Shown here: in pieces, positions 6,513 to 57,184 of the stretch | How positions within the stretch are numbered: position 1 is the first letter of the stretch | Layout of the letters: each line of letters begins with the position of its first letter | Origin: Planctomycetota bacterium | GTDB lineage: Bacteria > Planctomycetota > JAJSAM01 > JAJVHW01 | Length of the DNA: 64,000 bases | Direction: 5' to 3' | NCBI GenBank assembly: GCA_021776825.1 | Contig: JAJFFG010000051.1 | Span: forward strand, 17,283-81,282 | Notes under the pieces: generated by a model | What the model saw: only the letters and a program-made list of their open reading frames with translations | Database searches by the model: none | What the model was told of the DNA's origin: nothing | Translations under genes and position numbers: made by a program

Positions 6513-6660
6513 GAGGGGACTCCGCGGTGCCGTGTCTCGCATCGGCACGATCCTCACCATCGCTTGAGCCCATCGACCCTGGCGGTGGGTGGCGGCCTCG
6601 CCGCCGCACGCGATCCGCGGCAGGCGATCCGCGGCAGGCGATCCGCAGCGACGTGTGCCG

Positions 6661-8004
6661 TCAGCGATCGTCGGCCGGGGGGACCGGCGCATCGTCGTCG
6701 GGAGTCGGCGCAGGCTCGTCGGGAGTCGGCGCAGGCTCGTCGGGAGTCGGCGCAGGCTCGTCGGGGCTCTCGCCAGCAGCATCGTCCCCCCCCTCCGGGG
6801 CGGCATCATCCGGCGCGGCATCATCCGGCGCGGCATCATCCGGCACGGCATCATCCGGCACGGCATCATCCGGCACGGCATCGGCTGGCGCGCCATCGAC
6901 CGGAGCCCGGCGCTTGGCACGGACCTTCTCGAGCCGGTCCTGGATGCGCTCGCCCTCCTCGACCTCACCCAGTTCGAAGAGGAAGCGGCCCAGCGAGCTC
7001 ATGATCGTCTCGTCCTCAGGAGAGAGACGGTGCGCCCGGCGCAGGATCTTGACGGCCTTGTAAGGCTCGCCGCGCTCCTTCTGGATCATGGCCAGGAGGA
7101 ACAGCCCGGCGGGCGCATCGCGACGGACGGCGAGGTAGCCCTCGGCGGCGCGCTCGCACTCGTCGAGGCGCCCCATCCGCAGGAGAACGCGGGCCTTGGC
7201 GACGAGCGTGTCGTCGAACGGGATACGTGTCGCTGACGCCTTCAGGATCGATCGGTCGAACGCATCGAGAGCGTCGTCCAAGCGCCCCATGTCGTTCAGG
7301 ACCTGACCCAGCGTGTGCCAGGCGCGGGCGGCATCGGGGTGCTCCTTGACGACGCCGAGGAGGATCTCCTCGGATCGCTTGCGCTCGTCGCGATGCCGAT
7401 GCGCGTCGGCCAGGTTGATCTTCGCGGCCACCTCGTCGCCGTGACCCGGTACGAGTTCGAGCGCAATCCCGATGTCCTCGATCGCCTCGTCGAACCGCGC
7501 GGCCTCGATCAGCATCCCCGCTCGGTTCACGAGCCCGCGGTAGTACCAGCGCCGCGCCATCTCGACGTCGAGGCCGACGGCCTCGGCGCCTTCGTACGCC
7601 TCCTTGAACATGTCGTGCGCGAGCGCGAAGTCACGATCGACCCACCGCAGCCGGCCGATGGCGAACGCCAGTCGCGCATCGCCCTTGCCGCCGCGCGAGA
7701 CGGCGTGCCGGATCAGATCCTCGGCCACCCGGTAGTGGCGAGACGTCTTGGTCAGGCCACCCGGGCGGGCGACGCCAGACTCGATCGCGAGGATCGCGGC
7801 ATCGGCCAGCTGGCCCATCGCGCTGGCCTTGATGGCAGCGCACGCGAACAGTTCCTCGACGGCCTCATCGACACGACCGGCCGCCAGAAGCTCGTCCGCA
7901 CGTGCTTGATGCCAGGCGAACCACTCGTCGGAGGTCTCCTCTCCCGCGTACGTGGGCGTGGCGAGGGACGCGAGGACGATCAGCAGCAGGGGGGCGATGC
8001 GCAT
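6661..8004 (-). CDS. secreted TPR-repeat protein with C-terminal acidic Pro-rich tandem repeats
   Basis: Signal peptide MRIAPLLLIVLASLATPTYA and multiple TPR-like helical repeats. C-terminus (DDAVP/DDAAP)x6 and (DEPAPTP)x3 is encoded by 15-bp and 21-bp DNA tandem repeats at about 6700-6900. Confidence 0.75.
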   Translation of the reverse strand: MRIAPLLLIVLASLATPTYAGEETSDEWFAWHQARADELLAAGRVDEAVEELFACAAIKASAMGQLADAAILAIESGVARPGGLTKTSRHYRVAEDLIRHAVSRGGKGDARLAFAIGRLRWVDRDFALAHDMFKEAYEGAEAVGLDVEMARRWYYRGLVNRAGMLIEAARFDEAIEDIGIALELVPGHGDEVAAKINLADAHRHRDERKRSEEILLGVVKEHPDAARAWHTLGQVLNDMGRLDDALDAFDRSILKASATRIPFDDTLVAKARVLLRMGRLDECERAAEGYLAVRRDAPAGLFLLAMIQKERGEPYKAVKILRRAHRLSPEDETIMSSLGRFLFELGEVEEGERIQDRLEKVRAKRRAPVDGAPADAVPDDAVPDDAVPDDAAPDDAAPDDAAPEGGDDAAGESPDEPAPTPDEPAPTPDEPAPTPDDDAPVPPADDR

Positions 8005-11764: not shown

Positions 11765-13591
11765 ATGCAGGAACGCTCGGGAGAACGACGGTTCACGCAC
11801 ACGGAAGGACCAGGCGTGGCGACCAGATCCAAGGCAGCGAAGTCGAAGGCAGCGAAGACGGGGCCTTCGAAGGCCGCGCGAGCGGCTCCAGCCCGCAAGA
11901 CGTCGACGAAGCCCACCGCCAAGAAGGCCCCATCCAAGAAGGCCACGTCGAAGAAGGCCCCATCCAAGAAGGCCCCATCCAAGAAGGCCACGTCGAAGAA
12001 GCCCGTGGCGAAGAAGTCCGCCGCCAAGCGGGCGACGCGCAACGCCCCGGCGAAGAAGGCCCCCGCGAAGAAGGCCCCCGCGCGAACGACCTCAGCGCGG
12101 AAGCCGACCGCGAAGAAGGCCCCGGCGAAGAAGATCACGGCGAAGAAGTCCACCGCCAGGAAGACGCCGGCTAAGAAGGCTCCGGCCAAGAAGGCCGCGT
12201 CGAAGCGCCCGGCTGCCAAGAAGCCCACCGCCCGCAAGGCTCCCGCACGGACGTCCACGACGAAGCGCTCGGCCACCAAGAAGCCGACGAAGTCGTCCGC
12301 GCGGAAGCCAGCGAAGAAGACCGCCAAGAAGCCCGCGGAGCGCACCGCGTCGACCAAGCCGGCCACGAAGTCGACGACGCGCCGCACGACATCGAAGAAG
12401 GCGCCCGTCAAGAAGACCACCGCGAAGAAGGCGGCGACCCGGAAGGCGCCCGCTAAGAAGGCGACCATCAAGAAGTCGCCGGCCAAGAAGGCGCCCACGA
12501 AGAAGGGCTCTGCGAAGAAGCCCGCCGCCAAGAAGTCCACAGGTAGGAAGACGGCGACGAAGCCGGCTGCAAAGACCACCGTGGCAACGAAGAAGACAGC
12601 GGCCAAGAAGGCCGCACCCAAGACGAAGAGGAGCACCCAGTTGGCCGATAGCCAGACCGGGTCCTCGGCGGAAACCGCCGGGGACCTCAGTACGAAGAAG
12701 TCCAAGTCCGCCTCGTCCGTCGCGACCGCGACGAAGACGGCGGGCGCGCGCCCGAAGCGCAAGCGTGAGCGCAAGCCGAAGCCGCCCGCGAAGACCATGA
12801 ACGCGCCCGAGCCGGTGCGCGACATCCTCCTGTCGATGGACATGCCCGACGTGCGCCGGGCGCGGACGGCGAACCAGCGTCGCCAGGCCTCCCGCGGCCA
12901 CCTCAAGCCGGCCCACACGGATGACCTCGCACAGGACGACATCACGGCGCCGCGTGAGCCGCTCGACGCGACGCTCATCATGAACACGCTGGCCGTCGAC
13001 GTGCAGCCGCGCATCGAGGATCACTACGACTACACGGTGCTCGAGGAGTTCAGCGAGTCCGACGAGTGCCCGCGCTCGACCCGCATGGTCAACACTGGCT
13101 GCGGTGGTGGCGAGGCAGCCGTCTTCTTCGCGAAGCGTGGGTTCCACTGCGTCGGGATCGATCCCGATCGCGGCGACGTCGGCCTCGCCCGCGAGCGTGC
13201 GTGGCTGGCCGGAGTGGACATCGACTTCATGGTCGGTGACCTCTTCGAGACCCCCAACCTCCTCCCCGGTGGTTCGTTCGGGCTCGCTGTGGATCGCGGC
13301 GCGTTCCACCGCATCGAGGAGCCGCGCGAACGTCAGCGCTACCTGGCGAACATTCGTCGGCTTCTCTCTGAGGGCGGCGTGCTGCTCCTCAGCGCCGGGT
13401 ACTTCCCGGTACGCTCCGAGAAGGGTCAGAGTCGCTCACGCCGCACCGGCGAGACGATCCTGCTCGCCGAGGAGGGTGGAGTCGTCGTCGGCGAGATGCG
13501 CACGGCGGGCTTCGCGTTGCTCCACCGCGTGCTGAGGCAGACGGCGGACTCGGGCGAGTTCGGCGAGCTGGTCCTCTACCTGCGGAAGTAG
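11765..13591 (+). CDS. fusion protein: histone H1-like Lys/Ala/Pro-rich repeat domain (about 300 aa) plus C-terminal class I SAM-dependent methyltransferase
   Basis: N-terminal (A/P/T)KK(A/P) repeats (AKKAPAKK, SKKAPSKK and similar). C-terminal Rossmann MTase motif I VNTGCGGGEAAVFFAKRGFHCVGIDPD and post-I acidic motif DFMVGDLF. Confidence 0.7.
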   Translation: MQERSGERRFTHTEGPGVATRSKAAKSKAAKTGPSKAARAAPARKTSTKPTAKKAPSKKATSKKAPSKKAPSKKATSKKPVAKKSAAKRATRNAPAKKAPAKKAPARTTSARKPTAKKAPAKKITAKKSTARKTPAKKAPAKKAASKRPAAKKPTARKAPARTSTTKRSATKKPTKSSARKPAKKTAKKPAERTASTKPATKSTTRRTTSKKAPVKKTTAKKAATRKAPAKKATIKKSPAKKAPTKKGSAKKPAAKKSTGRKTATKPAAKTTVATKKTAAKKAAPKTKRSTQLADSQTGSSAETAGDLSTKKSKSASSVATATKTAGARPKRKRERKPKPPAKTMNAPEPVRDILLSMDMPDVRRARTANQRRQASRGHLKPAHTDDLAQDDITAPREPLDATLIMNTLAVDVQPRIEDHYDYTVLEEFSESDECPRSTRMVNTGCGGGEAAVFFAKRGFHCVGIDPDRGDVGLARERAWLAGVDIDFMVGDLFETPNLLPGGSFGLAVDRGAFHRIEEPRERQRYLANIRRLLSEGGVLLLSAGYFPVRSEKGQSRSRRTGETILLAEEGGVVVGEMRTAGFALLHRVLRQTADSGEFGELVLYLRK

Positions 13592-16903: not shown

Positions 16904-18160
16904 ATGCGCAACACGTTGAGGTTCACTGCGTTCGTCGCGGGTCTGCTACTCGTCTCCGCCTGCTCGGGCGGCTCGTCGGAACGAGGTGCCGCCCCGGATG
17001 GGAGCGGGATGCCGAGCGCGACCGAGGTCGCGCAGCTCGACGAACACCGCTCGCTCGGCGAGCCCGTGTCGATCGACAACCTGACCGTCTGGCCCGTGCA
17101 CACGGACGCCCCGCTCGAGATCGGCGAGTTCCTGACGCTCCAGGAGGCGCAGGCCGACGGCGTCGCGGCAGTTCGCGAGGTCGGCGGCAGCGCTCCGGGC
17201 GAGGCGCCGAACGGATCGAGCTCGAATCGCAGCGGCCGTCAGGTCGACAACCATCTCGCGAACGGCTCCGCGACGGTCAACACGCTCGTGGTCGAGAACT
17301 CCGGCGACAAGCCGATCCTGATCTGCGCCGGCACGATCGTGAAGGGCGGCAACCAGGATCGCCAGATCGGGCAGGACCTCGTCATCGCTGCCGGGAAGAC
17401 GGTCCCCGTCGGCGCGTTCTGCGTCGAGCAGGGCCGCTGGACGAACGTCCGCGAGGGCGTGGCGAACGACGGGACGTTCGCGGCCATGAACGTCGTGGCC
17501 CCGATGAAAGTGCGCACGAACGCCCAGTACGAGAAGGACCAGGGCAAGGTGTGGGAAGAGGTCGCGGCGGCACGCGTCGTCGCGTACCGGATGAGTGGCG
17601 GGGGCGGTGAGAGCACTGCGGCGCGCCGCTTGGCCTTCGAGTTCGAGGCCGACCCTCAGGCCGACGACATCCAGGTCCAAACCGCCAGTTTCGGCGGCGG
17701 CACGAGCTTCGTCGACGCCCTTGAGAAGGCGGACGGCTCCGTGCAGAAGGCGCGATCCCAGCGGACCGACGCGATCCGCGCGCACTTCGCCGAGCTAGCG
17801 GGCGACGACGCCCCCATCGGCTTCGCGTACGCCATCAACGGCAAGCCCGTCACCGTGCGCGTGTTCGCGCACCACCGTCTGCTCGAGCAGAACCTCGACC
17901 CGTTCCTGAACGCCATGGCGCTCGAGGCCGAGGCCGCGGAGGAGCAGGAGTTCACGCCCTGCACGGCGCACGACGTGGTGACGATGGTCAACGAGATCAA
18001 CGTGGCTGCCGAGCAGCGCGAGGAGACGAAGGCCGCCAACTGGAACGGACTCCGTCAGAACGACCGCGGCTTCAACGGGAACTGCTACTTCGGGGACGGA
18101 GACGCTGAGGACGCGGAGTTCCTCTACATCCCGGTGACCCAGGACTGGACGTCTCGGTAA
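16904..18160 (+). CDS. hypothetical lipoprotein
   Basis: Lipoprotein signal with lipobox (MRNTLRFTAFVAGLLLVSAC). Coding-like composition, no recognisable domain. Confidence 0.55.
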   Translation: MRNTLRFTAFVAGLLLVSACSGGSSERGAAPDGSGMPSATEVAQLDEHRSLGEPVSIDNLTVWPVHTDAPLEIGEFLTLQEAQADGVAAVREVGGSAPGEAPNGSSSNRSGRQVDNHLANGSATVNTLVVENSGDKPILICAGTIVKGGNQDRQIGQDLVIAAGKTVPVGAFCVEQGRWTNVREGVANDGTFAAMNVVAPMKVRTNAQYEKDQGKVWEEVAAARVVAYRMSGGGGESTAARRLAFEFEADPQADDIQVQTASFGGGTSFVDALEKADGSVQKARSQRTDAIRAHFAELAGDDAPIGFAYAINGKPVTVRVFAHHRLLEQNLDPFLNAMALEAEAAEEQEFTPCTAHDVVTMVNEINVAAEQREETKAANWNGLRQNDRGFNGNCYFGDGDAEDAEFLYIPVTQDWTSR

Positions 18161-18164
18161 GTTC

Positions 18165-18339
18165 GATCCGTCGTCGGCGCGGGTGGGTCACCCCGCACAC
18201 AGTCGCGTGGCCCGTCGGTCGCAGCCTTGCGTGGCCTCAATCCACGCGTCACCGACGGCGCCTGCGCGAAGCGCAACCTCCGCGCCCCGGGTTCGGATTC
18301 GGGTGGGTGTCGTCTCCTCCAATCCAACGCGATCGCTAC
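18165..18339. repeat. truncated copy of composite repeat (unit tail plus GC stem-loop connector)
   Basis: Contains cggtcgcagccttgcgtggcctca and gcgcaacctccgcgccccgggt, shared with the loci at 21313, 43323 and 55036. Confidence 0.6.
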
Positions 18340-18630
18340 GTCAACGGCGGCGTAGGGGCGGACCCCCTGGTCCGCCCCGCCCGCTGGGGTTGCTCGCGCC
18401 ATGCGGGTCCGATGGCGCACTGCGAACGACCGGCGCGACGCGGACGGCCATCGGACGACGGCGCCGAACCCGATGGACTTCCCTGTGCGTCGGCGTCATC
18501 GGGTCGCGACGGGGATCGCCCGTGACGGACCGATCCACCCCCCCAGCGGTCGCTCGCTGACCGCCATCCACCCGCCTCATCCGGGCGACGCGTGTCGGCG
18601 GGGCGGACCGGGGGGTCCGCCCCTACGGGC
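18340..18630. repeat. MITE-like element copy A (about 290 bp) with about 22-bp terminal inverted repeats containing nested palindromes
   Basis: 5' end GTCAACGGCGGCGTAGGGGCGGACCccctGGTCCGCCCC. 3' end GGGGCGGACCggggGGTCCGCCCCTACGGGCGG. The ends are inverted with respect to each other, and each holds its own palindrome. Confidence 0.7.
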
Positions 18631-18687
18631 GGTCCCGGAAGTTCCCGACGCCGTCCGGGCGGCATACCCGATCGAACGGTGTCGCAA

Positions 18688-18880
18688 CTCAACGGTCCCG
18701 TACGGGCGGATCTCCTGATCCGCCCGCGCCCGCTGGGGTCGCTCGCTCTGGGCGGGTCCGACGGCGCTCGGCGGACGACTCGCGTGATGCGGACAGCCGT
18801 CGGTCGATCTGATGGCGGCTCGACGTCGGGGCTCGATCCCTCGATGACGCCGTCGGCGCCCCCGCCTACCCCTCGTCGGG
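18688..18880. repeat. MITE-like element copy B (partial, 5' TIR of the GATCTCCTGATC variant)
   Basis: Starts CTCAACGGTCCCGTACGGGCGGATCTCCTGATCCGCCCGCGCCCGCTGGGG. Core is homologous to copy A (gcccgctgggg...gggtccgacggcgc...gatgcggacagccgtcgg). Confidence 0.6.
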
Positions 18881-19456
18881 CTTCGGCCGATCCACGCCCA
18901 CCCAGCAGTTCGCCGAATCGAGCGCGCTCGCCCCGGCCTGCTTGGCGTAGAGGAAGAGCTGCATCCGGTACGCCACGAGCGTCTTCAACACCATGTCGAC
19001 GAACCCCTGGCCCTGCTTGCACGCAGTCCCCCACGGCATGGTCCGATCCGTCTCGAGCGCGTCGGCAACCTCGATCCCGTCGAGGATCTTCTCGAGCGCA
19101 TCCATCTGCGCGTCCATCGCATCGCAGAAGCCCTCGGGCGTAACCGCCTGTGCGCGCTCGTTGTGCTCGGGCCCGTGATCCCAGTTGTCGTTGACCAGGT
19201 TCACGGCGGGCAGCCACGCCGAGATCGCCATGTACTGCAGCAGTTCCCGCATCGACCGTTGCCCGTCAGTGGGACGCCAGTCCATCTGTCCTTCGGGGAT
19301 CTTGGTCGAGAGGTGCTTGATGATCTCCACCTCGTGACGCATCGAGGCGAGCAGCTGTTCCTTCGTGATCAACGGGGCCTCCGGGAGCAAGCAGAATGGT
19401 CGCGACGAGCGTCCAGCATACAGCGCACCGTGACCAGGCCCCGCGGCTCCCGCCAA
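18866..19456 (-). CDS. DinB/YfiT-like four-helix-bundle protein (hypothetical)
   Basis: Coding-like 196-aa ORF. The probable true start is MRHEVEIIKHL (ATG rc at 19340-19342), giving about 158 aa. Weak resemblance to the DinB_2 family. The stop abuts repeat copy B. Confidence 0.4.
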   Translation of the reverse strand: MAGAAGPGHGALYAGRSSRPFCLLPEAPLITKEQLLASMRHEVEIIKHLSTKIPEGQMDWRPTDGQRSMRELLQYMAISAWLPAVNLVNDNWDHGPEHNERAQAVTPEGFCDAMDAQMDALEKILDGIEVADALETDRTMPWGTACKQGQGFVDMVLKTLVAYRMQLFLYAKQAGASALDSANCWVGVDRPKPDEG

Positions 19457-19493
19457 CGTTGCACCGCTCCCGCGCCTCCCCCACCCTCTGCGG

Positions 19494-21311
19494 ATGAGCG
19501 CCGACTCCGCTCCGCTACTCGTCGATGTCGAGCGTCCGATGCGCCGCCTGTTCCGCTACCTGCGGCCCATGCGAGGTCGACTGACGTTCTCGGTCGTCTC
19601 GAGCGTGCTGAACAAGGTCTTCGACCTGATGCCGCCGCTGCTCGTGACGTGGTTCGTGGACGTTGCGCTGCGCGAGTCGCCAGAGTGGCTGTCGGCCATC
19701 TCCGGAGAGGGTATCCAGCCGGAGCTGATCGCTCTGGGCGTCCTCACCGTGATGATCTTCGCGGGCGAGAGTCTGTTCCAGTGGATGTACAGCTGGGGGT
19801 TCATGACGCTCGCGCAGAACCTGCAGCACCGCCTCCGTGTCGACGCCTACGACCGCATGCAGGAGCGCGAGCTGCGCTTCTTCGAGGAGCACCGGTTGGG
19901 CCGGACGCTCTCGATGCTGAACGACGACGTCAATCAGCTGGAGCGCTTCCTCAACGCGAGCCTCAGCGATCTGGTGCAGCTCACCGTGCTCGTGCTGTTC
20001 GCGGGCACGGTGCTGCTCTCGACGGCGCCGACGCTGGCGCTGATCGGGCTCGCGCCGGTGCCGCTGATCATCTGGGGCAGCCTCCGATTCTCGAAGCTGC
20101 TCGAGCCGCGCTACGCGCGAGTCCGCGCCGCGGTCGGTGAGCTCGCCGCGCGCCTCGAGAACAACATCGCTGGCATCCTCGTCATCAAGAGTTTCACCGC
20201 CGAGGAGCACGAGAGCGCCCGCGTCGAAGAGGTCTCCGACGACTACCGCCGCGCCAATCACGACGCGATCCGGCTCTCGGCCGTCTTCGTCCCTCTGATC
20301 CGCATGGCCATCGCCGTCGGCTTCGCCGGGGCCCTCGTCGTGGGCGGAACGTGGGTGGCTTCCGGCGAGCTGAAGGTGTCGGTCTTGGTGCTGTTCGGGA
20401 TGATGATCCAGCGCATCCTCTGGCCGATGACGCGGCTCGGAACGACGTTCGACGAGTACCAACGCGCAGCGGCGAGCGCTCGGCGCGTCTTCAGCCTCCT
20501 CGACACGCCGTCACAGGTGGTTGACCCCGCCGAGCCGCTGGAGCTCACAGCCGTGCGCGGCGAGATCGCGTTCGACGACGTCGTCTTCGACTATCACCGC
20601 GGCGAGAGCGTTCTGCGCGGGCTGTCGTTCCGGGTCGCTGACGGTGAGACCGTCGGCGTCGCCGGCCCGACCGGAGCCGGCAAGTCCACGCTGATCAAGC
20701 TCCTGCTCCGCCTCTACGACGTGACCGGTGGAGCCGTCCGCATCGACGACACCGATGTGCGGGGCGTGCGTCAGCGAGACCTCCGGCGTCAGATCGCCGT
20801 GGTGACGCAGGACGTCTATCTGTTCCACGGGACCATCCACGAGAACATCGCCTACGGTCAGCGCGCGAACGGCGTGACCGAACCGACGTTCGAAGAGGTC
20901 CGCGCCGCGGCACAGGCGGCGCATCTTCACGAGTTCGTGGCGACGCTGCCCGACGCCTACGAGACGGTGGTCGGCGAGCGCGGCATCAAGCTCTCCGGCG
21001 GGCAGCGCCAGCGGCTGAGTCTGGCGCGCGCCATCCTGAAGGACGCTCCCGTACTCGTGCTGGACGAGGCGACGAGCTCCGTCGACACCGAGACGGAGCG
21101 CCAGATCCAAGAGAGTCTGCGCAGTCTGGCCGCGGGACGGACGGCCATCGTCGTGGCGCACCGACTGAGCACGATCCGTCACGCAGATCGCATCCTCGTG
21201 CTCGACGACGGCCGCGTCGTCGAGGAGGGTCGCCACGACGATCTGGTGGCATCCGGCGGGCTGTATGCGGATCTGTGGAACGTGCAGTCGGGGAACATTC
21301 GGCCGGAGTAG
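19494..21311 (+). CDS. ABC transporter, fused permease/ATP-binding exporter (MsbA-like type I exporter)
   Basis: Six N-terminal TM helices. NBD with Walker A GPTGAGKST, ABC signature LSGGQRQRLSLAR, Walker B VLVLDEATSSVD and an H-loop. Confidence 0.9.
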   Translation: MSADSAPLLVDVERPMRRLFRYLRPMRGRLTFSVVSSVLNKVFDLMPPLLVTWFVDVALRESPEWLSAISGEGIQPELIALGVLTVMIFAGESLFQWMYSWGFMTLAQNLQHRLRVDAYDRMQERELRFFEEHRLGRTLSMLNDDVNQLERFLNASLSDLVQLTVLVLFAGTVLLSTAPTLALIGLAPVPLIIWGSLRFSKLLEPRYARVRAAVGELAARLENNIAGILVIKSFTAEEHESARVEEVSDDYRRANHDAIRLSAVFVPLIRMAIAVGFAGALVVGGTWVASGELKVSVLVLFGMMIQRILWPMTRLGTTFDEYQRAAASARRVFSLLDTPSQVVDPAEPLELTAVRGEIAFDDVVFDYHRGESVLRGLSFRVADGETVGVAGPTGAGKSTLIKLLLRLYDVTGGAVRIDDTDVRGVRQRDLRRQIAVVTQDVYLFHGTIHENIAYGQRANGVTEPTFEEVRAAAQAAHLHEFVATLPDAYETVVGERGIKLSGGQRQRLSLARAILKDAPVLVLDEATSSVDTETERQIQESLRSLAAGRTAIVVAHRLSTIRHADRILVLDDGRVVEEGRHDDLVASGGLYADLWNVQSGNIRPE

Positions 21312-21312
21312 G

Positions 21313-21737
21313 GCGGGGCCGGATGAGGTCACGTCGATTGCGAGCAGTCGGTTGGTGACGCGCTTCGGGACATGCGGCAATCGCCGTGCCCACGGTGTCT
21401 CTGGTCGGCTCCGCGGCCGCGTCACCTCGCTAGCGAGCGCGTTGCCCCTCGGTCGCACCCTTGCGTGGCCTCCACTACCCGCGTCACGGCGCGGGGTCAC
21501 GCCGATTGCGGGCGGTTCGTTGGTGACGGGCATCGGGGCCTGCGGCAATCGCCGCGCCTCCGTTGTTGTTGGTCGGCTCCGCGGCTGCGTCTGCTCTCAC
21601 GCAAGAGCAGACCCCTCGGTCGCAGCCTTGCGTGGCCTCATTCCCCGCGTCACGGCGCTTGCGCTGACGCGCAACCGCAGCGCGCAGGGCTAGGATCCGG
21701 GTCGGCCTCGCCCCCGCCAACCTCACGCGATCGCTGT
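21313..21737. repeat. tandem array of about 169-bp hairpin units plus GC stem-loop connector (composite repeat, plus orientation)
   Basis: GTCACGnCGATTGCG at 21328 and 21497; GCGGCAATCGCCG(T/C)GCC at 21374 and 21543, so period 169 bp. Connector CGCGTCACGGCGCTTGCGCTGACGCGCAACCGC at about 21645-21680. Confidence 0.7.
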
Positions 21738-22073
21738 GTCAACGGCGCCGTAGGGGCGGACCCCCTGGTCCGCCCCGCCGACGCGCGCCGCACGCACGAC
21801 TCGGGTGGATGGCGCACCGCGGACGAGGACCGTCGTGTGTTCGGCGACCGGCCGACGGCGCGGTCGCGGCGAGGCGGATGGGAAGCCATCCGGATTGACC
21901 GACGACCGTGCGCATCAAGTCATCGTTCGCTGAGCGCCCGCGTGCCCGAGTCCTCCGCGCGCGCCCCAGTCGGCGGGGTGGATCAGGAGATCCACCCGTA
22001 CGGCAGTTCGGGCACCGATCCGCGAGGTCCTCGTAGGGGCGGGCCCCCGGGCCCGCCCCTACGGCGCCGTTGA
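21738..22073. repeat. MITE-like element copy C (336 bp) with perfect 22-bp TIRs
   Basis: 5' GTCAACGGCGCCGTAGGGGCGG and 3' CCGCCCCTACGGCGCCGTTGAC are exact reverse complements. Nested palindromes GGGGCGGACCccctGGTCCGCCCC and GGGGCGGGCCcccGGGCCCGCCCC. Confidence 0.75.
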
Positions 22074-22079
22074 CCTAGC

Positions 22080-22490
22080 GTGTCCGTGGGATCGGAGGAG
22101 ACGACACCCATCCGGATCCCCACCCGGGGCGCGGAGGTTGCGCGTCAGCGCAAGATCCGTGACGCGGGTATGGAGGCCACGCAAGGCTGCGACCGGGGGG
22201 AACCGCTCTCGCGTGCGAGGTGACGCAGCCGCGGAGCCGACCAGAGACAAACGAGGGCGCGGCGATTGCCGCATGTCCCCGATCAGCGCCCGCCGATCCA
22301 CGGGCCCGCAATCGCCGTGACCGCCACGCAAAGGCAATGGAGGCCACGCAAGGGTGCGACCGAGCAGGCAACGCCCTCGGCAGCGGGGTGACGCACCCGC
22401 GGAGCCGACCAGACAACAAACTAGGGCGCGGCGATTGCCACATGCCCCCGACGAACGCCCACCCACCGGGCGCCCAGCAATCGCCGTGAC
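22080..22490. repeat. inverted (reverse-complement) copy of the connector plus tandem hairpin-unit array
   Basis: ggcgcggcgattgccgcatgtccccgat is the reverse complement of the unit atcggggacatgcggcaatcgccgcgcc. gcgcgtcagcgcaag...cgtgacgcggg is the reverse complement of the connector. Confidence 0.7.
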
Positions 22491-23912
22491 CTAGTTCCTC
22501 TGCAACTCCGCCGGGGTCATCGACACGCCTTCGGGCGGCGTGTCCTTGTTCTTGTCCCACCACTTCTTCGCGGTGCGCGCTCGGCGGCGGCGCTCGGCGA
22601 GGGACTGGTCCTGCGTGACCTCGAAGTCCTGCTGCGTGATGTTGCGCAGGGCGAAATTCGCCTGCTGCGCGACGTACGCCTCCTTGTCCTCGAGCGCCTC
22701 GATCAGGTACGGCGTGGCGAACCACGACTTCAACATCGAGAGCGAGCGGGCACAGGCGCGCCGCACCAGGAAGTGCTTGTCGTTCACAAGAGCCCAGGCG
22801 AGCGCCGGCGTGGCGGCGGGATCGCCAATGCGGCCGAGTTCGTTGGCGGCCGGGAAGCGCACGCCGTCCTCACCGGACTCGAGCAGGTCCTTCGAGAGAC
22901 GCACGACCTCCTCGTTGACCTCGGGAACCACTGGCTGGTCGTCCCGCGGCTGGTCGTCCACTCTTGTTCGCTCGGGAGTCGTGTCGGTCTTCTTGACGAC
23001 GACCTCGGGTCGCGTGACGGTCGCGTTCGCACGCGAGACGACATCGTCGATCCGCTGCTGCAGTCCCTTGAGCTCGCCCTCCATCCGTGCGACGCGCTGG
23101 TCGAGTCGCACGTCGTCCCGAGCCAGGTCGGCGCGCACGCCGGCCAGATCGGTCCGGAGTTTCCCGATCTCGTCGGCGACGTCGCCACCCACGGCCTCGG
23201 CGAACTTCTTGAGTTCACCGGTGATCGCGGCGCGATCGTCGTCGCGCTGCTTCGCGATCTTCGCGATGCGCCCGTCCATCTCGGCGCGGAGTGCGGCGAC
23301 CTCGTCGCTCGGAGTCGGACCGCCCGCCATGCGTTTCTGCACCATCGGACCGATCACGTAGCCGATGCCGCCAGCCAGCGCTGCAACGATGAGGAAGACG
23401 GCCAGCACGCGCAGACCACCGCCGCCCGACTTCGACGACGAGACGGCGCGACAACTCTCACAGACGACGCGGTCGCCCTGGACGAGTGCCTTGCCCGTCA
23501 CGACATGACTGTGCGGCACGACCGCTGAGCAGACGTTGCACCGCGTCGGCTTGACGGGGTCCTCCGCCTCGATGTCGGCAGCCATCTCGGCCTCGACCGC
23601 CTCACGACGCGCGGCCCGCTTGCCGGGATCAGCCTTCGTGCACACGGCGCAGAGGAGCGAGCCGTACTCCTTTCGAGCACGACCCGAGCGCTGGTCCGAC
23701 GCAGGGACCGACACGCGGCAGTTCGCGCAGAAGAGAAGCTCGAGCTCGGTGCCGTCGTCGGTGGCCGGCGCGGTCTCCGCTGGCTTCGCGTCGGCCGCTC
23801 CGTCGCGATGCTCCGAGCAGAGGTTCTTGCCGCCTTCGCCCATGGCGAGGCCAGACTCGACCTCCACGTTGGGGATCGACACGCCACACACACTGCAGAA
23901 ATGGAGTTCCAT
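22491..23912 (-). CDS. membrane protein: three N-terminal CxxC zinc ribbons, one TM helix, coiled-coil region, C-terminal HEAT/PBS-lyase-like repeats
   Basis: Probable start MELHFCSVCGVSIP (ATG rc at 23910-23912), with GGAGAG 7 nt upstream. CxxC pairs: CSVC...CSEH, CANC...CAVC, CNVC...CESC. TM helix LRVLAVFLIVAALAGGIGYVIG. C-terminal segment DPAATPALAWALVNDKHFLVRRACARSL is HEAT-like. Confidence 0.6.
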   Translation of the reverse strand: MELHFCSVCGVSIPNVEVESGLAMGEGGKNLCSEHRDGAADAKPAETAPATDDGTELELLFCANCRVSVPASDQRSGRARKEYGSLLCAVCTKADPGKRAARREAVEAEMAADIEAEDPVKPTRCNVCSAVVPHSHVVTGKALVQGDRVVCESCRAVSSSKSGGGGLRVLAVFLIVAALAGGIGYVIGPMVQKRMAGGPTPSDEVAALRAEMDGRIAKIAKQRDDDRAAITGELKKFAEAVGGDVADEIGKLRTDLAGVRADLARDDVRLDQRVARMEGELKGLQQRIDDVVSRANATVTRPEVVVKKTDTTPERTRVDDQPRDDQPVVPEVNEEVVRLSKDLLESGEDGVRFPAANELGRIGDPAATPALAWALVNDKHFLVRRACARSLSMLKSWFATPYLIEALEDKEAYVAQQANFALRNITQQDFEVTQDQSLAERRRRARTAKKWWDKNKDTPPEGVSMTPAELQRN

Positions 23913-24420
23913 CAAGGTCTCTCCGTGGCCTGCCATTCTAGCCCCCGTTCGCAGCCTGGCGCGTTCGTCGTCGGGAAACCGCGGTGCGAGGCCCCGTGCC
24001 CACGACCGCGAGTCCGATCTCGATCGCCAGAAGGGCCGCAAGGGGCGTGCCCGCCGCGAGCGCTATCGCTCGCGAGCGACCACGAACGCGCCCGGCAGGG
24101 AGCGCGAGGAAGTTCGCCGTGGCGTGAAGGTCGCGCGAACAGGTTGCGCGCGGCCGGGAGTTCGGTCAGATCGAGTCGTGACGAGCCCGGTCTGTCAGAA
24201 GGCGCCACGTCGGCCATCTGAACGGTGACCATCTGAACGGTGAATATCTGAACAGTGACCATCTGCACGGCGGCAGACGGAGCCGCTGCGGGCCGCGGGT
24301 CGGGACACGATGCGCGGAGACACCGTGCGTTGAGACACCGTGCGTTGAGACACGGTGCGTTGAGACACGGTGCGTAGAAGTACCGTGCGTCGAAGTACCG
24401 CGCGCCGCGAGGGCGCGGCG

Positions 24421-24626: not shown

Positions 24627-24950
24627 TCAGGAGAGCGCCGTGGGAGGTCGCGGGCTCGGACTGGGGTCGTCGGTGACCCGCTTCTTCATGAGGCGGCCAA
24701 CCTTGAACTTCACGACGCGCTTGGCCGGGACATCGACTTTCTCGAGCGTGCGGGGGTTCTGGGCGCGCCGTGCAGGGCGTCCCTTGATCTCGAACACCCC
24801 GAACTCGCGGAACTCGAGACGGTTGCCCTTGGCCAGCTCGTTGATGATCTCGTCGAGGAAGCGCTGCAGGATGTCCTTCGTGACGACCTTCGTCTCTCCG
24901 GTCTGCGATGCGATTCGTGCGACGAGTTCCTTCTTGGTGATCGTGGCCAT
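24627..24950 (-). CDS. HU/IHF-family nucleoid-associated DNA-binding protein with Pro/Ser-rich C-terminal tail
   Basis: MATITKKELVARIASQTGETKVVTKDILQRFLDEIINELAKGNRLEFREFGVFEIKGRPARRAQNPRTLEKVDVPAKRVVKFKVG is the canonical HU/IHF fold sequence. The upstream part of ORF 24627..25061 is rejected. Confidence 0.85.
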   Translation of the reverse strand: MATITKKELVARIASQTGETKVVTKDILQRFLDEIINELAKGNRLEFREFGVFEIKGRPARRAQNPRTLEKVDVPAKRVVKFKVGRLMKKRVTDDPSPSPRPPTALS

Positions 24951-25061
24951 GCTCAACTCCGCGGTGTCCGGCGGCTCGGCCGGGCGCCTTGGCGGCCCCC
25001 TCACGTTTCGACTTATCTCCGCTCTCCAACGAGAGTTAGAAGAACGTAGCCAAGTGGCCAC

Positions 25062-33695: not shown

Positions 33696-33782
33696 CCGGG
33701 CTCGGTCACGGCGCGCGCGAAGGATCTCGGCGCTCCGATGACAGAATCCACCGCACTGGCACGGCCGCCACCCGTTGGTGAG

Positions 33783-42917: not shown

Positions 42918-43328
42918 ATGCCCTTGGCGAAAGAACCCGCTCACCCGCTCGACAAGCGCGAGCTCCTCCACGCCGATCCTCCGGACGCGAAGCGCATCGA
43001 TGCGGTGGCGTCGAAGCTCCTCGACGAGGGCCGTGAGGGCGAGTCCGTGGAGTACATCGAGGTGACGCGCAACGCGGAGCTCATCGCGCGCCTCACCACC
43101 GCCGCGAAGAAGAAGGGCTCGCCCTTCCTGCTCGAGCAGTCGCAGCGCCTGTCCGGCGAGATCCAAGACGAGACGGCCTGGCGCGACATTGCCGACGCTG
43201 CGCAGCGAGCGGAGCGTCATGTCGACGTCGTGCGCGCGTACTCGGCCGCCGGGCTCGAGGCAGAGGCCGAGGAGTACCGGGTGGTGAACTGCCCGGACTA
43301 CGACCCGTTCAAGCCCCATAACAAGTAG
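42918..43328 (+). CDS. hypothetical protein
   Basis: ATG with GGAG 7 nt upstream. Divergent from the megaregulator gene. 136 aa with no recognisable domain. The stop TAG at 43326-43328 abuts the composite repeat. Confidence 0.5.
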   Translation: MPLAKEPAHPLDKRELLHADPPDAKRIDAVASKLLDEGREGESVEYIEVTRNAELIARLTTAAKKKGSPFLLEQSQRLSGEIQDETAWRDIADAAQRAERHVDVVRAYSAAGLEAEAEEYRVVNCPDYDPFKPHNK

Positions 43329-43934
43329 CGGTCACGGCGATTGCGGCGGGCGTCGAAGGTGGGCGCGCGTCGACACAGTGGCAATCGCCGCGCCCGCTAG
43401 TGCTGTCTGGTGTGTGCTCGGACTCGTCACGCGTCACGCGAGGGAAACCGGCGCCGGTCGAGGACCTCCGCGCACACATTCCCCGCGTCACGGCGCGGGG
43501 TCACGTCGATTGCTGGTCGTGGGTTGGTGACGCACATCGGGACATGCGGCAATCGCCGCGCCTCCCATGTTTCTGGTCGGCTCCGCGGCTGCGTCACCTC
43601 TCACGCGAGAGCAACCCCCTCGGTCGCAGCCTTGCGAGGCCTCATCTCCCGCGGGGGCGGTCACGATCTCCCGCGGGGGCGGTCACGGCGATTGCGGGCG
43701 GTCGGTTGGTGACGCCGATCGGGGCATGAGGCAATCGCCGCGCCCTCGTTGTTGAGTGGCGTGTGCTCGGTCTCATCACGCGTCACCCGAGGGCAATCGG
43801 CGCCGGTCGAGGACCTCCGCGCACACATTCCCGCGTCACGGCGCTTGCGCTGACGCGCAACCGCCGCGCCCCGGGTGAGGATCCGGGTGCCGGTCGCCTC
43901 CTCCCGTCCAACCGGTCCATTACCTCAACGGCGC
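43323..43934. repeat. tandem array of three about 180-bp hairpin units plus GC stem-loop connector (composite repeat)
   Basis: GTCACGnCGATTGC at about 43323, 43500 and 43681, each followed about 45 bp later by GCAATCGCCGCGCC. Connector CCGCGTCACGGCGCTTGCGCTGACGCGCAACCGCCGCGCCCCGGGTG at about 43835-43880. Confidence 0.7.
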
Positions 43935-44205
43935 CGTAGGGGCGGATCTCCTGATCTGCCCCGCCCGCTGGCGTGCGCGCGATCGATGCGGGTCCGATGG
44001 CGCTCGGCGCGCGGCTCCCGTGATGCGGACGGCCATCGGTCGACCGCGCCTCACTTCGGCGATCCGCCCGATCGTGATTCGTGCGCATCGCCGTCACCGG
44101 TCGGACGCGCCAGCCACCACCGTCGCCCGCGCGATCCGTCGTCGGCGCGGGTGGGTCAGGAGACCCACCCCTACAACGCCGTTGACCAGGCGAACCCCGT
44201 CGTAC
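43935..44205. repeat. MITE-like element copy D1 (GATCTCCTGATC variant)
   Basis: 5' CTCAACGGCGCCGTAGGGGCGGATCTCCTGATCTGCCCCGCCCGCTGG. 3' GGGTGGGTCAGGAGACCCACCCCTACAACGCCGTTGAC. Confidence 0.65.
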
Positions 44206-44214
44206 GGGCGGATC

Positions 44215-44345
44215 TCCTGATCCGCCCCGCCCGCCGGGTCACGCGCGGTCAACGCGATCCGATGGCGCTCCGCGGACGATCCCGCTCATGCGGACGGCGA
44301 CCGGTCGAGGGCGTCGCAGGCGATCGGCCGCGCAACCGACGCCTC
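44215..44345. repeat. partial tandem second copy (D2) of MITE-like element
   Basis: CGTACGGGCGGATCTCCTGATCCGCCCCGCCCGCCGGG followed by core-homologous sequence. No 3' TIR is seen before the next gene. Confidence 0.5.
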
Positions 44346-54010: not shown

Positions 54011-55035
54011 AGCCCAAGGTGTTCCTGTCTCTGGTCGCGGCGCTCGTCGTCGCGGTGGTCACGGTGACGTTCCTCTGGCCCCGGCAGGAGGGCGTCACGC
54101 TCTACTGCGCGGTCGACGACGTGCACGCGATCCCGATCCTCGACGCGTTCGAGGCGCGCACGGGCATCCACATTCATCGCAACTTCGACACCGAGGCGAA
54201 CAAGACGGTCGGCCTGGTCGCGAAGCTGCGCGAAGAGCGCGCGAACCCGCGTGCCGACGTGTTCTGGAACAACGAGATCATGCACACGATCCGCCTGGCT
54301 CGGGAAGGCGTGCTGACTCCGTACGCGTCCGACTCCGCGAAGGACATCCCCGATGCCCTCAAGGACGCCGACGCGCTCTGGACCGGGTTCGCTGCGCGCG
54401 CGCGCATCCTGATCGTCAACACCGAGCTGCTCCCCGACCAGGCTGAGCACCCGACGTCGATGCAGGACCTCCTCGCCGAGCCGTGGAAGGGCCGCACGTC
54501 GTTCGTGCGTCCACTGACGGGCACGACGTTGACCCACGCCGCCGTGCTCTACACCGTGCTCGGTGACGACGGCGCGCGCGACTGGTTCAAGGGCATGCAC
54601 GCGAACGGCACCGTGTTCCCGAGCGGCAACGGTCAGCTCGCCCGCGCGGTCGCCGGCGGTCAGTCGACGTTCGGGTTCACCGACACCGACGACTTCGAGA
54701 AGGTGCGCCGCGATGGCCGGCCAGTCGCGAAGGTCTACCCCGATCAGGGCGAGGGCCAACCTGGCACGCTGCTCATCCCGAACACCATCGGTCTCGTGAA
54801 GGGCGGCCCTCGCCCCGACCTGGGCCAACAGCTCATCGACTTCCTCCTGTCGAGGGAAGTCGAGGCGATGCTCGCCGCCGGCGACAGCGCTCAGATCCCG
54901 GTCCGCAGCGACGTCGCTCGCCCCCCGAGCGTCATCGGACCGCCGACGTTCCGGACGATGGTGGTCGACTGGAATGACGTGGTCGAGAACTTCGATCAGC
55001 GGCTGGGGGAGTTGGAGGCCCTCTGGCGGCCCTAG
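54007..55035 (+). CDS. extracellular solute-binding protein (iron(III)/SBP family 1-like)
   Basis: ATGA overlap with the RR stop. N-terminal TM/signal MKPKVFLSLVAALVVAVVTVTF. Periplasmic-binding-protein-like sequence. Confidence 0.7.
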   Translation: MKPKVFLSLVAALVVAVVTVTFLWPRQEGVTLYCAVDDVHAIPILDAFEARTGIHIHRNFDTEANKTVGLVAKLREERANPRADVFWNNEIMHTIRLAREGVLTPYASDSAKDIPDALKDADALWTGFAARARILIVNTELLPDQAEHPTSMQDLLAEPWKGRTSFVRPLTGTTLTHAAVLYTVLGDDGARDWFKGMHANGTVFPSGNGQLARAVAGGQSTFGFTDTDDFEKVRRDGRPVAKVYPDQGEGQPGTLLIPNTIGLVKGGPRPDLGQQLIDFLLSREVEAMLAAGDSAQIPVRSDVARPPSVIGPPTFRTMVVDWNDVVENFDQRLGELEALWRP

Positions 55036-55279
55036 TCACGCCGATTGCGAGGCGCGTCGCAGGTGGGCGCGCCTCGGCTGAGAGGCAATCAGCGAGCCTT
55101 GCGTTGTTGTCTGGCGTGTGCTCGGTCTCGTCACGCATCTGACGAGGGCCATCGGCGCCGGTCGAGGACCTCCGCGCACACACTCCCCGCGTCACGGCGC
55201 CTGCGCTGACGCGCAACCGCCGCGCCCCGGGCGGGGATACGGGCGGGCTGGGTCTTCTCCGATCCCACGGGTCCGCTCT
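55036..55279. repeat. single hairpin unit plus GC stem-loop connector (composite repeat) directly after stop codon
   Basis: GTCACGCCGATTGCG...GGCAATCAGCG, then CGCGTCACGGCGCCTGCGCTGACGCGCAACCGCCGCGCCCCGGGCGGGG. Confidence 0.65.
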
Positions 55280-55572
55280 GTCAATGGTGCCGTAGGGGCG
55301 GATCTCCTGATCCGCCCCGCCCGCTGGGGTGGCGCGCGCTCGATCGGGGCGGATGGCGCTCTGCGGACGATGTCGGTGATGCGCGCGGCTCCCGGTCGAG
55401 GGCGTCGGCGCCGATCGGCGATGCGACGACTGGCGTCATCGGGTCGCGACGGTGATCGCCCGTGGCCGTCCGATCCACGGCCGTCGTCCGCTGTCCGCCA
55501 CTCACCCGCCGGGTCCGAGCGACGCGCGTCGGCGGGGCGGATCAGGAGATCCGCCCCTACGAAGCCGTTGAG
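55280..55572. repeat. MITE-like element copy E (293 bp) with inverted ends each holding the GGGGCGGATCaggaGATCCGCCCC palindrome
   Basis: 5' GTCAATGGTGCCGTAGGGGCGGATCTCCTGATCCGCCCC. 3' GGGGCGGATCAGGAGATCCGCCCCTACGAAGCCGTTGAG. Confidence 0.7.
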
Positions 55573-56731: not shown

Positions 56732-57184
56732 CTAGTCGAGTCGAGAGCGCGGCTCGCTCGGCTCGCTCACCCGCGTCCGAACGTCCCCGGCGCCCAGGAG
56801 GCCAGGAGGCCAGGAGGCCAGGAGAACGAGCAGGGGCACGAGGCCGGCGATCGCGACGAGGCGGACGAGGGTGCGTTCCAATCCGACCAGATTCCGGGAC
56901 CGCAGCGCGCGATAGCGCAGGAGCAAGGCCGCCAGCAACACCAGCACATCGAAGGACACCGCTGCGCCGAACACCATCGCGTGGACGGCCAACTCGACAT
57001 CCGGCGGGGTGGGCTGGCCGGCGACGATGAACGACACGATCGACGCGACAGCGACCGCGATGAGGACGATGCCCACGTACACCACGTAGCCCGAGCGCAC
57101 CGTCACTGGCGCGATCGTCGCCCCGACCGTGGCCGTCGCCGGTCGGCGAGGGTCATGCGCCGCCGCCGGTTCGTCGTCACTCAC
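56732..57184 (-). CDS. hypothetical membrane protein
   Basis: 150 aa, 3-4 TM segments. Contains an in-frame GGAGGCCA x3-4 DNA tandem repeat at 56800-56830. Confidence 0.35.
   Translation of the reverse strand: MSDDEPAAAHDPRRPATATVGATIAPVTVRSGYVVYVGIVLIAVAVASIVSFIVAGQPTPPDVELAVHAMVFGAAVSFDVLVLLAALLLRYRALRSRNLVGLERTLVRLVAIAGLVPLLVLLASWPPGLLGAGDVRTRVSEPSEPRSRLD

Follow-up and report, generated by a model that had tools for sequence, protein, structure and literature searches.

Why do large tandem hairpins begin directly behind stop codons in the genome of a Planctomycetota bacterium, and to what kind of element do they belong? The question arises from a stretch of 64,000 nucleotides on contig JAJFFG010000051.1 (hereafter the window), in which arrays of approximately 170-nt hairpin units follow several genes, each array leading through a short connector into an element with inverted ends. 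A first-pass annotation had proposed a single composite mobile or regulatory module. Here, we describe a dispersed, insertion-polymorphic and modular family of maintained hairpins at the ends of convergent genes, which probably represents a lineage-specific mosaic of selfish, non-coding, hairpin-rich, non-autonomous mobile intergenic DNA, comparable in type to repetitive extragenic palindromic (REP) sequences, bacterial interspersed mosaic elements (BIMEs) and BOX elements.

Architecture of the composite element

The tandem units are real: the pattern CACGNCGATTGC-N28-45-GCAATCRSCG matches the window eight times (21330 and 21498 on the plus strand, 22488 and 22319 on the minus strand, 43333, 43502, 43684 and 55037 on the plus strand), against 0.00 matches expected from 100 shuffles, and an nhmmer profile of the unit recovers the same eight full units with E values of 1e-31 to 1e-42. 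The profile adds a 3′-half unit at 18166-18255 (E 1e-17) that the first-pass annotation had overlooked. In total, the window therefore holds eight complete units, 165-181 nt long, and one half unit, grouped into arrays of one to three at five places in four intergenic regions (Table 1). Some earlier measurements needed correction. The first unit of the third locus starts at 43330 instead of 43323, and the spacings there are 170 and 181 nt instead of about 178-181, the longer one including a perfect 22-nt duplication (43644-43687); the complementary arms CGATTGC and GCAATCG are separated by 35-38 nt rather than by about 45. Units are contiguous, lack spacers and share 54-83% pairwise identity over their whole length, which agrees with the view that the arrays are not CRISPR-like. 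Since units of different loci can resemble each other more closely than array neighbours do, as with units 43500 and 21497 (83% identity), the arrays are not simple recent local duplications.

Folding of an alignment of the eight units (A1, 75% mean column identity) resolves each unit into two hairpin domains and a tail. H1 (columns 3-72) has a near-invariant outer stem of 13 pairs, GTCACGnCGATTGC / GCAATCGCCGCGCC, with fixed T-C and A-C mismatches, and an interior that varies between copies yet pairs with itself in each of them, for example as GTCGA/TCGAC at 43330 and GAGGCGCG/CGCGCCTC at 55034. H2 (columns 86-157) is a domain of about 70 nt closed by a long-range stem of 14 pairs. It occurs in two versions, A and B, which are only 47-59% identical but differ in a compensated manner, on both sides of five pairs and partly in a sixth. 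The tail forms CCCGCG-tcacgg-CGCGGG at unit-unit junctions. In this structure, 93.2% of cells are paired, compared with 37-48% when partners are slid by 1-3 columns, and 10 pairs are altered on both sides, compared with 1-4 in the slid controls. The folding energy of single units is unexceptional for their composition (z from +0.2 to -2.0).

When both strands were folded, the consensus energies were -31.5 kcal/mol in sense and -30.3 kcal/mol in antisense, and the sense-strand structure contains 29 G-U cells against 4 A-C cells. A strand-specific structure of the RNA sense was considered and dropped, as the antisense strand folds nearly as well and z is not significant on either strand. As the two strands fold almost equally well, the data establish that the hairpin architecture is maintained, though they do not tell whether RNA or DNA, or which strand, forms it. 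The idea that H1 is a CGTC-tagged REP was likewise abandoned, for the N of CGNC varies (T, C or G) and lies within the stem, which leaves no tag.

The interior of H1 falls into three types (alpha, beta and gamma), and the combinations alpha+A, alpha+B, beta+B and gamma+A are all present (Table 1), with one array reading B-A-B. H1 and H2 types thus assort independently, and modules have been exchanged between units.

Downstream of the arrays, the connector GCGTCACGGCGCTTGCGCTGACGCGCAACC is found at 21647, 43833, 55189 and 22165 (minus strand) with 0-2 mismatches, where 0 occurrences are expected, and in a diverged copy at 18246. Its stem had been drawn as a GC-only GCGTCA/TGACGC, but is better described as CGGCGC-tTGCGC-TGAC-GCGCAa-cCGCCG: the copy at 22136 (minus strand) retains the outer part of the redrawn stem through a compensated CGGA/TCCG, and the copy at 18246 has lost the GCGTCA/TGACGC pairing and kept TGCGC/GCGCA. 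Read as GTCACGGCGCTTGCGC-TGAC-GCGCAACCGCCGCGCC, with the canonical 3′ arm of the copies at 43833 and 55189 (the copy at 21647 has GCGCAACCGCAGCGC instead), the connector has the arms and mismatches of H1 around a loop of only 4 nt, and is itself a short-loop member of the H1 family, written here as the pattern GTCACGGCGNTTGC...GCAAYCGCCGCGCC. A conserved bridge of about 60 nt joins it to the left inverted hairpin. The five copies can be aligned as a single block of about 390 nt that starts at the connector, and since the approximately 100 nt from connector to left hairpin are conserved as one block, the composite copies share a common origin.

The inverted hairpins read (TCAACGGCGCC) GTAG GGGCGGATC-TCCT-GATCCGCCC (search motif GTAS GGGYGG...), and all 12 in the window lie within the four repeat regions. 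A head directly 5′ of the stem is present in every one (GTAG in eight, GTAC in four), its last G being pairable in most copies. Stems measure 9-10 bp and loops 2-4 nt; every one of the 99 cells is paired, three pairs show compensation (C-G to U-A, A-U to G-C and U-A to C-G), and folding z-scores against shuffles are -3.5 and -4.6. Four head-to-head dimers have inverted ends of 56-58 nt (78-80% complementary) and a conserved core between the partners. GTAG-tagged REPs have been defined by an unpaired GTAG/GYAG head, a stem of 5-13 bp and a loop of 2-20 nt; they frequently form head-to-head dimers 20-100 bp apart, have complementary stem sub-types, are numerous in each genome and mostly extragenic, and have been catalogued in eight phyla, including Planctomycetes (PMC3733652). 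Judged by these published features of tag, stem and loop, the hairpin part is a bona fide GTAG REP. The element had been called MITE-like, after miniature inverted-repeat transposable elements. Its inverted ends are indeed present; it is better read as a head-to-head REP dimer, and a consistent target duplication is not seen.

The composite can be written [H1-H2]n (n = 0.5-3), short H1, bridge, REP dimer, and the annotated order of array, connector and inverted-hairpin element holds at all five places. The claim of a single module is therefore sound as to fixed order, the conserved block of about 100 nt and, as described below, insertion as a whole block. The parts are nevertheless separable. 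Apart from any array or connector, REPs occur at 18689-18830 and 44199-44335 (each with half a core, after the dimers) and at 21965-22005, whereas an extra one at 22031-22073 heads the minus-strand module; the half unit at 18166-18255 and the H1/H2 recombinant at 43681 also speak against a single module, as do the membership of the connector in the H1 family and the lone H1 and lone REP of two relatives (L084 and L086, respectively). Separable parts and recombined types are how a REP-type module mosaic, similar to BIMEs or BOX elements, behaves.

The half unit at locus 1 begins as a REP flank and 5′ stem and continues as H2 of type A; it may be a chimera, or it may hint that H2 derives from a REP. 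The 26-nt stretch GATCCGTCGTCGGCGCGGGTGGGTCA is identical at 18165-18190 and at 44133-44158, the latter in a REP flank.

Placement, insertion and relatives

A gene map of the window (69.7% G+C) was drawn from third-position G+C and Pfam matches. All repeat families of the set are confined to the four intergenic regions, which make up 5.4% of the window and are its four long spacers between convergent genes: four of the six convergent junctions carry repeats, compared with none of the 31 others (Fisher p = 2.3e-4). Similar distributions have been reported for BOX, RUP, SPRITE and insertion sequence (IS) elements (PMC3049150) and for REPs (PMC3733652).

The arrays had been described as starting directly after stop codons. 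This adjacency is real, with the first unit 16 nt from the stop codon of the ABC exporter gene, 0 nt from that of the HEAT gene (minus strand), 1 nt from that of open reading frame (ORF) 42918-43328 and 0 nt from that of the solute-binding protein gene, while at locus 1 the repeat begins 4 nt past a TAA. Part of it is to be expected from short convergent spacers. The ancestral spacers were 16-100 nt long, so any insertion falls near a stop codon, and co-orientation with the upstream gene is uninformative because the 5′ end of an element in a convergent spacer always faces the end of a gene on the same strand. Two candidate targets were examined and discarded, namely TAG as such, which accounts for 19 of the 38 stop codons in the window, and unoccupied copies of the bare motif GTCACGNCG (for example at 33705), a motif whose excess over chance is explained by the arrays.

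The tetranucleotide CTAG is strongly avoided in the window (21 sites, compared with 178 expected from composition or 45 from a Markov model), and eight of the 21 lie in or at repeat regions, where 1.1 are expected (p = 8e-6). Five sit exactly on module boundaries: 22491 and 22421 on either side of one H1, 43397, 55032, and 22075 at a REP head. Furthermore, in three cases the stretch 3′ of H1 is the complement of the last bases of the gene, stop codon included: AACTAGG/CCTAGTT at 22491, TAGCGG/CCGCTA at 43330 and GCTGACC/GGTCAGC in L084. With only five modules, these observations would be compatible with a preference for (C)TAG as target and equally with selection of hairpins able to close over the stop codon.

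The genes of the window resemble those of Planctomycetota, and the best named matches of the ABC exporter are to 'Planctomycetes bacterium', the nearest database relatives being only 72-74% identical in protein. Comparison of orthologous loci revealed sites without units. In the relative L079, the gap between the ABC exporter and HEAT genes is 16 bp, compared with 1179 bp in the window; the 16 nt to the left of the first unit match the L079 spacer in length, and the TAG of the HEAT gene has the same position in both. The 135-aa gene of L086 and L085 closes with the same AAGTAG as here, and no unit comes after it. Relative to related genomes, the whole block is an insertion. The corresponding spacer of L081 (GCA_024280885.1, 11840-12060) holds a different element, an unrelated palindrome of about 200 bp that is flanked by CTAG and has the ends CTAGGGGTGCGGCCAGAAACCCCCG / CGGGGGTTTCTGGCCGGGCCCCTAG. 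The ABC/HEAT spacer is a recurrent sink for small elements.

The hairpins also occur singly in relatives. The L084 locus was obtained by protein similarity, independently of any DNA pattern, and a covariance model of the unit detects in it a lone short-loop H1, TGA cc GTCACGGCGGTTGC-N14-GCAACCGCCGCGCC, 2 nt past the stop codon of a kinase/sigma-54 activator gene; it contains an A-T to G-C compensated pair, and its 3′ arm is identical to that of the connector at 16 of 16 positions. L080 contains a perfect hairpin on the H1 framework, and in L086 a lone hairpin, GTAG GGGCGGCC-N17-GGCCGCCC, lies in the spacer that follows the 135-aa gene. Because both hairpin families occur singly in L084 and L086, they are older than the composite.

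Full units or the composite were not found in about 80 kb of relatives, viral contigs, plasmids, Rfam or a six-frame query of 5.8 billion proteins. A scan of a genome collection with the unit pattern, which is loose, gave at least 76 loci, nearly all of them chance hairpins among the matches listed. A stricter pattern matched metagenomes twice (L077 and L078), essentially in H1 only and with uncertain homology, since these matches were selected by the pattern; the full-length model aligns weakly to L077 (40.6 bits), where H2 is poorly paired. In L078 (57-1537), a metagenome contig of 57% G+C, an orfA/orfB pair of the IS3 family has the H1-like hairpin (84-143) at its 3′ end, an arrangement reminiscent of those IS3-family members that insert into REPs.

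A conserved multi-copy intergenic element of about 165 nt, whose central hairpin has the arms GTCACGnCGATTGC / GCAATCGCCGCGCC, is present in Alkalispirochaeta sp. OZ271836.1 and in the Spirochaetales bin PL24a_bin.20 (copies in Table 1), with no match in Rfam. Its homology to the units is not established, as the covariance model scores of 20-31 bits are driven by the pattern-forced arms, and we treat it as a lead only.

Nothing points to a coding role for the units: their lengths of 165-181 nt are not multiples of 3, every frame contains stops in some unit, and six-frame unit translations have no match at E <= 1e-4 among the 5.8 billion proteins. Rfam gives 0 matches at the gathering threshold in the window, the best sub-threshold E values of 0.4-5 being those of chance. 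No sigma-70 promoters or intrinsic terminators were detected within the repeats.

Competing explanations and proposed mechanism

The closest known analogues of the composite are BIMEs and, above all, streptococcal BOX elements. Like the GTAG REPs, REPINs and BIMEs of E. coli, Pseudomonas and Stenotrophomonas, the window hairpins combine a GTAG/GTAC head with a compensated, G+C-rich stem of 9-10 bp and a short loop, are extragenic, form head-to-head dimers and module mosaics, and prefer gene 3′ ends. Unlike them, they have partners separated by 186-220 nt with a conserved core, carry a further outer flank (TCAACGGCGCC), and are welded to a second, unrelated hairpin family, the H1/H2 units. E. 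coli REPs that lie within about 15 nt of a stop codon were reportedly the subject of a study by Liang, Rudd and Deutscher in 2015. Mycobacterial interspersed repetitive units (MIRUs, or MIRU/VNTR) are similar in being intergenic tandem repeats of variable number and in contact with the stop codon of the upstream gene; they differ in their length of 46-101 bp, their position within operons and the small ORFs that often overlap the flanking genes, and they have no long compensated hairpins and are not joined to REP dimers. BOX elements (boxA - boxB(n) - boxC in Streptococcus) are alike in being composite, in having variable tandem internal modules whose repeated module is structurally independent in predicted folds, in their over-representation between convergent genes, and in varying in length by module gain and loss (PMC3049150). 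They share no sequence similarity with the present elements, whose G+C content is 70%; the repeated module here is a 170-nt, two-domain mosaic compared with a boxB of about 45 nt, and the array is the 5′ end of the composite, which begins with a unit at the gene end and has no 5′ terminal module. The E. coli REPs of 3′ untranslated regions (3′-UTRs) offer a functional analogy only, as stable stem-loops directly past the stop codon between convergent genes (bioRxiv 10.64898/2026.03.23.713779).

That analogy raises the question of whether the units are themselves functional 3′-UTR RNA structures, acting as exonuclease barriers, insulators/terminators or, where they lie only a few nt from the stop codon, modulators of translation termination, an account that we consider unlikely. 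Stems preserved by compensatory change, the surplus of G-U over A-C cells in the sense structure, units that begin 0-2 nt past native stops at three loci and the three independent complementarities to gene ends would all suit it, as would the report that E. coli REPs are 3′-UTR terminator-stabilisers linked to higher expression of convergent pairs (bioRxiv 10.64898/2026.03.23.713779). However, the folds show no strand preference, sense orientation is automatic in convergent spacers, and the elements are insertion-polymorphic, multi-copy and modular in the manner of mobile DNA; moreover, as CTAG is palindromic, a duplicated target could account for one of the three stop-codon pairings. It is rather improbable that H1, with its fixed and asymmetric arms, serves for recognition in a hitherto undescribed element class that is placed, or selected, directly behind stop codons and whose flanks pair across them, although such a class might extend beyond this lineage. 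The lone copy 2 nt past a stop codon in a related genus and, as a lead, the 165-nt elements with the same arms in two spirochaetes point that way, and if the idea were true, the H1 class would be a stop-codon-targeting mobile element or a 3′-end RNA device.

The distribution of CTAG invites a further alternative, that classical MITEs are moved by a DDE transposase targeting CTAG (or TAG). CTAG being almost absent outside stop codons, insertions would be directed to gene ends, and as each would duplicate CTAG, new targets would arise beside old elements and clusters would form. The CTAG enrichment at repeats and on five module boundaries, the terminal inverted repeats of 56-58 nt in the REP dimers and the CTAG-flanked palindrome in the same spacer of L081 are in keeping with this mechanism. 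We nevertheless regard it as quite improbable: unit-unit junctions lack CTAG, the four REP dimer flanks are only CTNN-like (CTGT, CTCT, CTAC and CTAG) and are not matching duplications, abutment on TAG is not unusual given the share of TAG among stop codons, and compensated-hairpin ends suit hairpin-recognising HUH systems better than DDE transposases. Lastly, 170-nt tandem repeats are hard to assemble from short reads, and the short-read contigs stop inside the arrays, leaving the number of units unconfirmed; contigs of the independent SRR15505515 assembly match the window with 100% identity but break off within the repeats at either end (L082, for example, corresponds to window 18847-21462), as assemblers do at multi-copy sequence, so that the repeats would be multi-copy in the genome. 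That the arrays arose by misassembly, or as a local duplication with no broader importance, is hardly credible all the same, since collapse or chimerism would not yield units at five places with such divergent sequences and different type combinations, and since the flank and the entry into the first unit are identical in the second assembly.

The reading as a REP/BIME/BOX-type mosaic remains the probable one, and the following course of events is proposed for it. A composite of the form described above would have been copied to several places, after which recombination among modules, together with slippage or unequal exchange inside the arrays, presumably reshaped the copies, the 22-nt perfect duplication at 43644 being a likely example of fresh slippage. 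Short convergent spacers, in which an insertion would be harmless, may be where copies survive, and the units would abut stop codons for this reason. The hairpins may be recognised as single-stranded DNA by a REP-associated tyrosine transposase (RAYT; HUH/Y1) encoded elsewhere, in line with the known link between REPs and RAYTs (PMC2817692, PMC3333891). Once in place, they would be transcribed as 3′-UTR stem-loops, which may slow 3′ exonucleases or limit read-through between convergent genes, as suggested by the E. coli REPs.

Several observations weigh against this reading. In REPIN/RAYT systems, the REPs also flank a single-copy RAYT gene; neither Y1_Tnp nor any other transposase was found in the window (Pfam on 38 ORFs), which leaves the RAYT link unproven. 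The REP partners lie 186-220 nt apart, compared with the usual 20-100 nt, and no described repeat is related in sequence to the 170-nt units. Four of the five modules are 0-4 nt from a co-oriented stop codon with the old spacer on the far side, a closeness that random insertion into a 16-40-nt spacer would produce with p ~0.004 (a rough estimate from a small sample), which hints at target choice or selection beyond the accumulation of junk. Additionally, the figures for units per array rest on one assembly, and the counts of copies and of co-occurring parts are those of the 64-kb window only.

Feature coordinates, neighbouring sequences and significance

Table 1. Repeat features of the window and copies of the spirochaete element (H1 and H2 types as defined in the text)
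Feature	Position	Strand	Evidence
Half unit (H2 type A only) and diverged connector, fifth locus	18165..18290	+	nhmmer, 5-way alignment
GTAG REP dimer (18341-18628), then REP+ 18689 with half core	18341..18830	.	inverted and direct repeats, motif
Unit 1 of array after ABC exporter (H1 alpha + H2 A + tail)	21328..21496	+	nhmmer E 3.7e-42, alignment A1, cmsearch 158 bits
Unit 2 (H1 alpha + H2 A), tail runs into connector	21497..21646	+	nhmmer, alignment A1
Connector, short-loop H1 GTCACGGCGCTTGCGC-TGAC-GCGCAACCGCAGCGC	21647..21685	+	motif match, folding
Conserved bridge, connector to left REP	21686..21738	+	5-way alignment
Head-to-head GTAG REP dimer (REP+ 21739-21779, core, REP- 21965-22005)	21739..22005	.	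inverted repeats, motif
Extra GTAG REP heading minus-strand module, CTAG flank at 22075	22031..22073	-	motif
Bridge and connector of minus-strand module	22074..22165	-	5-way alignment, motif match
Second unit of array after HEAT gene (H1 gamma + H2 A)	22150..22322	-	nhmmer, alignment A1, covariance model
Unit (H1 gamma + H2 A), 0 nt from TAG of HEAT gene; H1 flanked by CTAG on both sides (22491, 22421)	22323..22491	-	nhmmer
Unit (H1 beta + H2 B), 1 nt past TAG of ORF 42918-43328	43330..43499	+	nhmmer, alignment A1
Unit (H1 alpha + H2 A) containing 22-nt duplication 43644-43687	43500..43680	+	nhmmer, alignment A1
Unit (H1 alpha + H2 B), recombinant of two types	43681..43832	+	nhmmer, covariance model
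Connector (short-loop H1) and bridge	43833..43924	+	5-way alignment, motif match, folding
GTAG REP dimer (REP+ 43925, REP- 44148-44185), then REP+ 44199 with half core	43925..44335	.	inverted repeats, motif
Single unit (H1 beta + H2 B), 0 nt past TAG of solute-binding protein gene	55034..55188	+	nhmmer, alignment A1
Connector and bridge	55189..55280	+	5-way alignment, motif match, folding
GTAG REP dimer (REP+ 55281, REP- 55534-55571)	55281..55571	.	inverted repeats, motif
Spirochaete element copies	L006 3639-3731, 6818-6925; L048 1172-1271, 2319-2409; L051 1079-1172; L018 527-620, 6563-6680; L059 3174-3307		

Other repeats and unusual genes of the window lie apart from these modules. The HU gene (24627-25061, minus strand) and the HEAT gene (22491-24041, minus strand) are separated by a 585-nt spacer, in which two adjacent 15-nt tandem arrays at 24214-24404 (CCATCTGAACGGTGA x3.8 and GAGACACCGTGCGTT x4.9) could be iterated binding sites. 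Perfect or near-perfect short tandem repeats are found in or beside ORFs at 6601-6897 (21 nt x3.4 at 6695-6765 and 15 nt x6.9 at 6794-6897) and at 56794-56824 (CCAGGAGG x3.9). A 608-aa protein (11765-13591) fuses a Lys/Ala/Pro-rich N-terminus of KKAP repeats (Pfam HC2, histone H1-like) to an S-adenosylmethionine (SAM) methyltransferase domain, and its KKAP repeats underlie the 15- and 45-nt tandem repeats at 11900-12535. The gene at 37532-42916 encodes a 1794-aa fusion of Ser/Thr kinase, AAA_16, TPR, GAF, sigma-54 activator and HTH_8 domains, which is conserved together with its neighbours in all relatives compared. An ARPP-1 domain gene (PF20208) at 16904-18160 lies between a Cys/Met-metabolism gene and the first repeat region and is absent from that position in L079 and L081.

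Descriptions of small interspersed repeats from Planctomycetota are scarce. In the window, GTAG REPs and the new H1/H2 family are fused into a composite that separates convergent genes by about 0.5-1.1 kb of sequence that relatives lack. Composite repeats of this kind disrupt the assembly of short reads and can be wrongly annotated as ORFs. They also provide a test case for the recombination of REP modules into mosaics, for the effect of hairpins behind stop codons on expression, and for the way in which a CTAG-poor genome may channel insertions to stop codons. Current views are not overturned by these findings; a known phenomenon is extended to a new lineage, with an unusually large and structured unit.

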